Shown here piece by piece: positions 16,226 through 19,013 of a stretch of DNA of 64,000 bases. The stretch is from a virus (lineage: Duplodnaviria; Caudoviricetes): the IMG/VR virus record IMGVR_UViG_3300036546_000172, positions 73,943 to 137,942 of that record; one strand, 5' to 3'. A program made the position numbers and the translations under genes. Numbering within the stretch: the first letter of the stretch is position 1; each line of letters begins with the position of its first letter. The notes under the pieces are model-generated. The model had not been told where the DNA came from, made no database searches, and saw only the letters and a program-made list of their open reading frames with translations.

Positions 16226-16256
16226 CTCCCGATAGCTCAGCTGGATAGAGCAACAG
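16226..16256 (+). pseudogene. 5' fragment of a tRNA (Arg-like D arm)
   Basis: CTCCCGA-TAGCTCAGCTGGATAGAGCAACAG stops at the anticodon stem. Confidence 0.6.
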
Positions 16257-16380
16257 AGACAACAAAGCCTCGCGCTAGCTCAATTGGATAGAGCACCTCC
16301 CTTCTTTTGTGCATTCGTGTAGTGTACAAAAGAAGGAGGTGGTTACTGGTTCGACTCCAGTGCGCGAGGCTTTGTTGTCT
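16257..16380 (+). ncRNA. tRNA-Arg(TCT)-like RNA with 27-nt anticodon insertion and extended acceptor stem
   Basis: 19-bp perfect terminal inverted repeat; intact D and T arms; removing 16306-16332 restores loop CTTCTAA; no CCA. Confidence 0.75.
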
Positions 16381-16435
16381 TTAAAAATACAAAATATGAT
16401 TCCCACTCGGGAATCCAATATAAGATAGGTGACAT

Positions 16436-16714: not shown

Positions 16715-16761
16715 TGTTAAATCGACAGTTAGATAAATAGAAAGGTATAAACAAGGAACCA

Positions 16762-16869
16762 ATGATGAACACTCAAAACACCATCGATGCGTCCAATATG
16801 CATCCCGGATATAGTAATTCGATGGCTCTCTGTGGCTATAAGCCAGGATACAGAGAACGAGGGTTTTGA
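16762..16869 (+). CDS. putative 35-aa leader peptide (MMNTQNT...YRERGF)
   Basis: AAGGA RBS; stop codon overlaps a segment complementary to the downstream terminator. Confidence 0.55.
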   Translation: MMNTQNTIDASNMHPGYSNSMALCGYKPGYRERGF

Positions 16870-16894
16870 GCTGATATTGCAGTCATAGTTCATC

Positions 16895-16922
16895 AAACCC
16901 TCCAGTTGGAGGGTTTCTTTTT
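16895..16922 (+). terminator. intrinsic terminator / attenuator
   Basis: AAACCCTCCA-GT-TGGAGGGTTT followed by a T run. Confidence 0.85.
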
Positions 16923-16950
16923 ATACTCGGATAAGGTACAATGAGTTTTC

Positions 16951-17036
16951 GGGTAAGCGGTGAAGTTGGAGAGTCACACCAGATTGTAACCCTGGCGCCA
17001 TGTGCTGAGTAGGTCCGAATCCTACCTTACCCACCA
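16951..17036 (+). tRNA. tRNA-Tyr(GTA), degenerate
   Basis: GGGTAAG/CTTACCC and CCA present; A-C mismatch in anticodon stem; T loop TCCGAAT. Confidence 0.7.
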
Positions 17037-17043
17037 ATAACAG

Positions 17044-17072
17044 TTGCACAACATCACAGGACATCATATAAT
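17044..17072 (+). promoter_or_regulatory. sigma70-type early promoter
   Basis: TTGCAC-N17-TATAAT. Confidence 0.75.
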
Positions 17073-17776: not shown

Positions 17777-17782
17777 GACAAC

Positions 17783-17871
17783 AGAGAGTGATTCCAGCTG
17801 GTGCTGGAGACCGCCTGCTAAGCGGTTCGCCTGATTCATCGGGTGTGGTTCAATTCCACCGCTCTCTGCCA
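17783..17871 (+). tRNA. tRNA-Ser(GCT)
   Basis: loop CTGCTAA, long variable arm, G73, CCA. Confidence 0.88.
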
Positions 17872-17872
17872 T

Positions 17873-17971
17873 GGAGAGGTAAGCCGAAAGATCCGGGGTA
17901 GCGGCAACGGTCGTGAAAACCGAGGGTTTACGAAAGTAGACGTCAGGGTTCGAATCCCTGTCTCTCCGCCA
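17873..17971 (+). tRNA. tRNA-Ser(TGA), enlarged D loop, G33
   Basis: loop CGTGAAA, long variable arm, CCA. Confidence 0.8.
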
Positions 17972-18352: not shown

Positions 18353-18737
18353 ACAAACATCATTGAGGTAGTCTCTAGGTGAGTTAACGGCCATTGACTC
18401 ATTGAGGATTGGCGGAATAAAGTCGGAGGTCTTGGGCTTAACGCACGTTCAAAGAGGTGGTTCTCGGTCATCTATCAAATGGTAGATGACGCAGTCTGAA
18501 AAGGCTTGAACGGTTCCTTGCATACACTACAGGCTACAGACCCTACTCTGTTAAGCATGTCAACAGTTCTCTCACCCTCATGCATGACTTGAAGATATTC
18601 TTCATAGTCGATGTCTGGCAACAGATGAGACAACAGATGACCAATCTAAGTCAGTCAGAGTCAACAAAGAGAGATGCAGGGGTGTTGGTAATAAGCTAGT
18701 CCAGCATTCTCACAGAGACTACCTCAATGATGTTTGT
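18353..18737 (+). ncRNA. large structured ncRNA of unknown class (385 nt)
   Basis: perfect 24-bp closing stem, many internal hairpins with G-U pairs, long-range complementarities; no + strand ORF. Confidence 0.75.
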
Positions 18738-18974: not shown

Positions 18975-19013
18975 TATCTGCATTTGATAAATACAAATAA
19001 ATGCAGGTGATCT

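Follow-up and report, generated by a model that had tools for sequence, protein, structure and literature searches.

Trp-type leaders, including Escherichia coli trpL and those of the his, leu, thr, and ilv operons, combine mutually exclusive 1:2, 2:3, and 3:4 helices with tandem regulatory codons. In the pheM leader of E. coli pheST, Phe codons are abundant, and the gene under control encodes an aminoacyl-tRNA synthetase. The pyrBI and ampC leaders sense the coupling of transcription and translation, and in pyrBI a ribosome following closely translates into the terminator and prevents it. T-box riboswitches bind uncharged tRNA directly, need no open reading frame (ORF), and carry conserved sequence motifs. 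RNAs C and D of phage T4 are stable, structured RNAs of 100-plus nt that lie in the tRNA region and are processed from tRNA precursor transcripts; we know of no Shine-Dalgarno (SD) sequence with an ORF, and of no terminator-competing helix, in either of them. Phage tRNA genes are now seen as a means of sustaining translation when host tRNAs are broken down or become targets of defense nucleases and, to our knowledge, are assumed to be constitutively expressed. Leader-peptide attenuation is, as far as we know, so far described for the biosynthesis of amino acids and for a small number of synthetase genes, and we found no precedent in the open literature searched for an attenuator on a phage tRNA gene.

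We analyzed a candidate attenuator in the tRNA gene array of an uncultured phage whose complete genome of 137,942 bp has direct terminal repeats (IMG/VR); the window is the right-hand 64 kb (64,000 nucleotides) of this genome. The gene content includes T4-type replication and recombination functions, rIIA/rIIB, and NAMPT. The nearest cultured relatives are rV5-like myophages of Klebsiella, Raoultella, and Escherichia, with ~51% identity in a well-conserved 678-aa protein, and no uncultured relative was nearer than these (~50% identity in the conserved protein). A first-pass annotation, made by reading the letters, had proposed a leader-peptide transcription attenuator in front of the tRNA array. 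The element in fact sits inside the array, with tRNA-Met (10931) and tRNA-Leu (16137) upstream; the next tRNA gene is tRNA-Tyr, as had been annotated, directly 3' of the candidate attenuator at 16951. Past the terminator, the array continues with tRNA-Tyr, a 161-aa ORF, and at least 9 more tRNAs. The features of the locus, in window coordinates, are as follows.

16733 to 16739, plus strand: ATAAATA, a T4-late-type promoter-like element; GATAAATA (16732-16739) agrees with 7 of the 8 positions of TATAAATA.
16753 to 16757, plus strand: SD sequence AAGGA, 4 nt before the ATG at 16762 and 7 nt before the ATG at 16765.
16762 to 16869, plus strand: leader ORF with 35 codons and a TGA stop; translation would likely begin at the second ATG, 16765 (34 codons).
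16763 to 16782, plus strand: segment 1, the candidate anti-antiterminator, UGAUGAAC plus CUCAAAACACC, in ORF codons 1-7.
16783 to 16858, plus strand: 3 predicted hairpins in the 1:2 domain, including 16827-16856, in the MFE and centroid structures.
16859 to 16872, plus strand: segment 2, the candidate antiterminator 5' strand GAGGGUUUUGAGCU, with the ORF stop (16867-16869) inside.
16887 to 16903, plus strand: segment 3, AGUUCAUCA plus the terminator 5' arm AAACCCUCC, with an upstream-pairing gain of -10.5 kcal/mol.
16908 to 16922, plus strand: segment 4, the terminator 3' arm GGAGGGUUU (16908-16916) plus the T-run (16917-16922).
16951 to 17036, plus strand: tRNA-Tyr(GUA), called by ARAGORN and matched by the Rfam tRNA model at 38.7 bits.
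17045 to 17072, plus strand: sigma-70-like promoter candidate TGCACA-16-TATAAT, with 10 of 12 matches (a consensus match only).

The layout resembles trpL in having a short ORF with an SD and 4 segments, of which 3:4 is the intrinsic terminator and segment 1 lies within the ORF, in the position of its stop codon, from which a ribosome at termination would cover segment 2, and in having a terminator more stable than the antiterminator, so that the choice would be kinetic. Unlike trpL, the candidate leader has no tandem codons for one amino acid and would control a tRNA rather than a biosynthetic operon; it is also phage-borne, possibly driven by a late-type promoter, and unconserved. A further difference is that segment 1 coincides with the first codons of the ORF, the start codons among them, and therefore any ribosome on the leader would open the switch. 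As in pheST, attenuation would act on a gene of the translation apparatus, with poor decoding leading to more of a decoding component, whereas the single-codon signal of pheST is missing and a tRNA gene is the target. The likeness to pyrBI and ampC is that the position of the ribosome relative to the polymerase, not one amino acid, would set read-through; unlike in pyrBI, there are 25 nt between the end of the ORF and the terminator, and termination would be favored by a ribosome keeping up. A terminator/antiterminator switch reporting the state of the tRNA pool also recalls T-boxes, although the candidate leader has an ORF and no Rfam family match. With T4 RNAs C and D it shares a general layout, a structured RNA embedded in a phage tRNA cluster, but differs in its SD and ORF and in its terminator-competing helix. 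In all, 4 of the 5 sequence-level features that define an attenuator are present, and the regulatory codon run is absent. A trp-type leader-peptide transcription attenuator within a phage tRNA cluster is the reading that we tentatively favor, as quite possible though short of probable.

The terminator consists of AAACCCTCC, the loop AGTT, and GGAGGGTTT (16895-16916), with a T-run to 16922. This GC-rich 9-bp stem with a 4-nt loop (-13.8 kcal/mol), followed by CTTTTTAT, lies 28 nt before tRNA-Tyr, and the first-pass annotation had rightly called it strong. The end of the ORF, GAGGGTTT (16859-16866), had been recognized as duplicating the terminator 3' arm and is an exact copy of 8 nt; this is the longest upstream copy of a 3' arm among the 28 terminator-like hairpins of the whole genome. 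The antiterminator pairing proposed from the repeat is recovered in the folds and exceeds its description, reaching ~14 pairs and -17.4 kcal/mol. Once segment 1 is unavailable, the helix of segment 2 with AGUUCAUCAAACCCUC (16887-16902) is worth -16.6 to -17.4 kcal/mol. In the ribosome-free fold, segment 1 pairs with 16888-16895 and 16859-16870 at a probability of ~1 and holds both antiterminator strands; the sequestering helix suggested earlier, between CTCAAAAC (16772-16779) and GTTTTGAG (16863-16870), likewise has a pair probability of ~1 in the folded unit. Among the nested helices that had been listed, TGATGAAC (16763-16770) with GTTCATCA (16888-16895) and TCTCTGT (16827-16833) with ACAGAGA (16850-16856) form at a probability of ~1, whereas CCATCGA/TCGATGG, complementary as they are, make up a minor alternative (pair probability ~0.03). 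The 1:2 helices include the leader start codons, and the start is sequestered in the finished transcript. The hairpins at 16783-16858 may serve as a pause or spacer element. Over the same segment, the terminator state reaches -19.7 kcal/mol and the antiterminator -17.4, so the equilibrium favors the terminator by ~2.3 kcal/mol; since the terminator wins at equilibrium, the choice must be kinetic, as in trp, which is a point against the attenuator. Two other origins of the leader structure were considered and rejected, namely a decayed duplicate terminator (upstream of 16859 there is no 5' arm that would match) and a tRNA-like or pseudo-tRNA element (the leader gives no ARAGORN or Rfam match).

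The nascent RNA was folded up to the terminator 5' arm, with 30 nt masked as the ribosome footprint. With no ribosome, the probability of the antiterminator was 0.03 and the 5' arm was free. With a ribosome at codons 1-12 it was 0.95-0.99, and it was 0.99 over codons 1-28 provided that helices cannot enclose the ribosome. With the ribosome at codon 30 to the stop, the antiterminator strand was covered and the 5' arm was 94-100% free, codon 29 being transitional. In full-length equilibrium folds, the terminator dominated save with the ribosome at codons 1-8. The 1:2, 2:3, and 3:4 logic that the first-pass annotation had drawn is thereby computationally supported beyond what had been claimed, with a near-isoenergetic antiterminator of ~14 pairs that is an outlier genome-wide and with 3 predicted states. 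We treat the masking folds, together with the shuffles reported below, as consistency checks on the modeled switch rather than as evidence of function.

If the locus is a trp-type attenuator, transcripts would reach the leader from the late-type promoter at 16733-16739 or from upstream genes. On a ribosome-free leader, codons 1-7 (16763-16782) would pair with 16859-16872 and 16887-16895, that is, with both antiterminator strands; the terminator (16895-16916) would form, and transcription would end before tRNA-Tyr. With a ribosome starting or lagging at approximately codons 1-28 as the terminator is made, segment 1 would be melted and 16859-16872 would pair with 16887-16902, capturing the terminator 5' arm, and the polymerase would read through to tRNA-Tyr and possibly further. 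A ribosome in step with the polymerase, at the UGA (16867-16869), would cover the antiterminator strand, and the terminator would re-form. Slow translation would in this way increase phage tRNA output through the attenuator. We infer that the leader ORF is translated and that read-through is variable, and the nature of the physiological signal is inferred as well.

The pairing of the terminator 5' arm with upstream sequence was compared across the 28 terminator-like hairpins of the whole genome, using the energy that the 5' arm gains with 45 nt of upstream sequence (the upstream-pairing gain). The gain of -10.5 kcal/mol ranked 1 of 28, with the next best at -6.9, and when the upstream sequence was dinucleotide-shuffled, 5 of 3000 versions matched it. 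The antiterminator state lies 3.3 kcal/mol from the terminator state here, whereas at the other strong terminators the two are at least 8 apart. The masked/unmasked switching was reproduced in 9 of 2800 whole-leader shuffles. These controls bear on the explanation by coincidence, in which a plain operon-end terminator, accompanied by a chance upstream repeat and a chance ORF, would serve for termination only. The locus was chosen by eye for its repeat, a selection effect that also counts against the attenuator, and it is an orphan and unconserved; upstream 8-mer or 7-mer copies of 3' arms exist elsewhere (two 7-mers among the 28 terminators), and the 5' arm is fully paired in ~1% of shuffles. 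Against this stand jointly rare independent features, with switching in 0.3% of shuffles, rank 1 of 28 by a wide margin, a correctly placed SD and ORF, and a promoter-type motif directly 5', and we regard coincidence as quite improbable. The architecture is real, it stands out statistically from the rest of its genome, and its mechanics are coherent for a trp-type attenuator. If the attenuator fails, the locus would mean that functionless terminator-competing helices with p ~0.002 to 0.003 do occur.

Thermodynamic stability of the unit was less distinctive. From the putative late promoter to the terminator the unit spans ~175 nt, and as a whole it folds at z = -5.0, with the terminator contributing much of that. 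The leader body without the terminator gave z = -2.7 (-2.4 for the antisense strand), at the ~7th percentile of genome windows against a rough background from the first 20 kb scanned, and most of these scanned windows with z of -5 or below contain terminators. The z = -5.0 of the whole unit overstates the case for a structured leader.

The AAGGA ribosome-binding site and the 35-codon ORF were both found where the first-pass annotation had placed them. The spacing from AGGA to the ATG at 16765 (7 nt) is the modal value in the genome, and this ATG is the start picked by an independent gene caller. ORFs of at least 34 codons with an SD and an ATG arise by chance at 0.07 per kb (off-frames). The codon score of the leader ORF was like that of spurious ORFs (LR real/spurious 0.13), and 3% of real-gene windows score this low. 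An exhaustive phmmer search of 1.84 billion representative proteins returned no homologues of the leader peptide, only the phage's own protein. The codon score and missing homologues argue against a conventional small protein, and a leader peptide and an accidental ORF would each fit them. In phmmer, several stretches of the 35-aa peptide (16762-16866) also weakly matched FN3-type repeats in very long proteins (E 4e-6 to 6e-4); these matches (pattern D-x-S...PG...AL-x-GY...YR) were judged spurious. A type I toxin mRNA, with its 5'-3' fold-back, was also considered and rejected, the peptide being polar (rich in N, S, T, G, Y, R, and E) and lacking a hydrophobic stretch.

An accidental ORF is what would be expected if the locus were a structured noncoding small RNA gene of ~175 nt with its own promoter and terminator, comparable to T4 RNAs C and D and to other structured RNAs of this array. 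The discrete promoter-to-terminator unit, the closed multibranch fold with its z = -5.0 for the whole unit, the noncoding-like codon usage of the ORF, and surroundings rich in structured RNA (a manA-like match and unusual tRNAs) all speak for such a gene. We consider it improbable all the same, given that the body alone reaches only z = -2.7 with the antisense strand nearly equal, that neither an Rfam family nor a structure-model homologue was found, and that an SD at modal spacing before an ATG ORF of 34-35 codons is unlikely by chance (the rate per kb given above); the terminator-competing helix would also be left unexplained.

The late-promoter-like TAAATA reported in the first-pass annotation is present at 16734-16739 and plausibly real, given its genome-wide intergenic enrichment. 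TAAATA is the hexamer most enriched in intergenic DNA of the whole genome (10.6-fold in gaps), with 14 copies in 7.2 kb of gaps vs 24 in ~130 kb of coding sequence. The longer form aTAAATA occurs 26-68 nt 5' of many start codons, and several of these copies share the 'gaTAAATAg' context of the leader. The full T4 consensus 8-mer TATAAATA was not enriched in the genome (6 copies vs 6.7 expected). From the element at 16733-16739, transcription presumably starts at ~16745-16747, a placement that we take from T4. A late-type promoter at 16733-16739 is plausible from these motif counts. The distantly related phage rV5 is reported to have a similar motif upstream of its late genes and to carry no homologues of gp55/33/45 (PMC3606486). 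Across the genome (e.g., window positions 18988, 21384, and 22680), (N)ATAAATA lies on the coding strand and is depleted within genes, and it is likely to be a late-promoter class of this uncultured phage.

Promoter, small ORF, and terminator in succession are also the ordinary layout of a small gene, which is a point against the attenuator. The locus could accordingly be read as an ordinary small late unit, in which a late-type promoter is followed by a short ORF (encoding a small protein, or a translated sORF) and a terminator that also closes the upstream operon. The complementarity linking the two ends of the ORF and the terminator would then serve mRNA stability or keep finished transcripts from being translated, or be incidental, and expression of tRNA-Tyr would come from constitutive leak-through or a weak promoter belonging to the gene itself. 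Several observations suit this explanation: the promoter-like motif, SD, ORF, and terminator are self-contained; the ORF was annotated by an independent gene caller; small ORFs between tRNAs are common in this and other phage arrays; pairing hides the start codon once the transcript is complete; a TACAAT lies 9 nt 5' of tRNA-Tyr; and the searches for relatives, described below, found no conservation pointing to a regulatory element. It accounts poorly for a noncoding-like codon score (the LR of 0.13 given above) in an ORF whose protein has a homologue nowhere, and it leaves unexplained both the near-isoenergetic upstream competitor, found at 1 of 28 terminators, and the stop codon inside that competitor. 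We judge a small late unit of this kind to be rather unlikely.

How tRNA-Tyr is transcribed bears on both this explanation and the attenuator. No sigma-70-like promoter for tRNA-Tyr was identified in 16880-16952, where the best score was 7 of 12. Lacking a recognizable promoter of its own, the gene seems to rely on read-through, and a terminator that leaks or is regulated would make sense in that setting. The -10-like TACAAT mentioned above could drive independent expression, a point against the attenuator. No gene other than tRNA-Tyr lies between the terminator and the promoter-like site that follows (17045-17072), which makes tRNA-Tyr the most direct candidate target; the candidate promoter at that site precedes the 161-aa ORF and the remaining tRNAs. 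No same-strand terminators were identified between 12327 and 16895, so transcripts of upstream genes would also enter the leader unit.

We searched for relatives and precedents of the element at the level of sequence, structure, and gene neighborhood. A blastn of 16715-16950 against 7 related loci gave no match, an exact pattern of the terminator and its flank had 0 matches in viral contigs, and in megablast and blastn searches against cultured phages only the tRNAs matched. Rfam covariance models (riboswitches, T-box, leaders, and sRNAs) gave no match on 16715-16950 at E up to 1. A structure model built from the single sequence, and thus of limited reach, had no match in 50 records of related phages (22 with a completeness of 90% or more) nor, with the same limited reach, in 16 loci with the upstream 92-aa gene. 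Scanning metagenomes with this 92-aa gene gave a nearest identity of 78%, and none of the loci recovered has tRNAs downstream; scanning with the 283-aa gene downstream of the array gave no relatives. The nearest relative keeps the 92-aa gene (78% identity) within a tRNA array, where another gene follows, and we found no leader-like arrangement in its array. Upstream of the most similar tRNA-Tyr genes, those of Alishewanella and Stenotrophomonas phages, no analogous leader was found. The only other copy of the element is in a Logan contig that is 100% identical over 7.2 kb, and because it is identical it carries no covariation or conservation information. The phage is also present in the read set SRR11805452. 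Unconserved orphan status and occurrence in one phage are the main weakness of the attenuator reading. In Stenotrophomonas phage Mendera (L093:1035-1187), a 50-codon hypothetical CDS stops 6 nt short of tRNA-Tyr, and no terminator separates the two. Other phages thus have small ORFs adjoining tRNA-Tyr, but without attenuator features.

The codon content of the leader was examined for a regulatory signal. The first-pass annotation had pointed to 3 Tyr codons and 9 NAY (queuosine) codons, and neither count departs from chance (p = 0.20 and 0.23, respectively). Clustered regulatory codons were not found in the leader ORF, which has no tandem run of any one codon (Asn, p = 0.12). Across codons 1-28, 20 specify amino acids served by tRNAs downstream of the terminator, compared with 38% genome-wide (p = 0.0004). 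Strict anticodon cognates of the downstream tRNAs make up 16 of these 28 codons vs 31% genome-wide (p = 0.0035 by the binomial, 0.009 against real-gene windows, and 0.039 against spurious ORFs) and 1 of the last 7 leader codons. For these counts, the downstream set included 2 Ser-type tRNAs missed by ARAGORN. The diffuse enrichment in cognate codons is suggestive, and as the outcome of a post hoc test we take it as a lead.

A more specific version of the attenuator is a translation-speed sensor in which the leader ORF would sample codons read by the phage's own tRNAs; we think this version unlikely. When ribosomes lag, for example with host tRNAs depleted, cut by anticodon-nuclease defenses, or decaying late in infection, the antiterminator would form, switching on tRNA-Tyr and then, through read-through, the rest of the array. 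The link of the leader to host tRNA cleavage is purely conjectural. If true, the speed sensor would be the first leader-peptide attenuator known on a tRNA gene and the first case of a phage tRNA supply that can be induced. The attenuator as such, if true, would make tRNA supply demand-driven and would extend a known mechanism to tRNA genes and to phages. The element, at ~190 nt, needs only an intrinsic terminator and a ribosome and is therefore directly testable in a standard host.

Further structured RNA candidates were identified elsewhere in the array. Two class-II tRNA-like genes missed by ARAGORN lie at 17782-17868 and 17874-17966, scoring 59.8 bits (gathering score 47) and 27 bits, respectively, against the Rfam tRNA-Sec model, with anticodons read from the alignments as GCU for the former and UGA, with G33, for the latter. 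With these anticodons, both resemble tRNA-Ser genes of an unusual kind, with long D-stems, more than tRNA-Sec genes. A tRNA-like T-arm sequence with no ARAGORN or Rfam call, noticed in translations of antisense ORFs, is found at 16255-16382, between tRNA-Leu and the 92-aa ORF. Between tRNA-Cys and tRNA-Met, 18379-18549 matched the manA RNA motif at 33.1 bits (E 1.3e-5), below the gathering score of 55.2.
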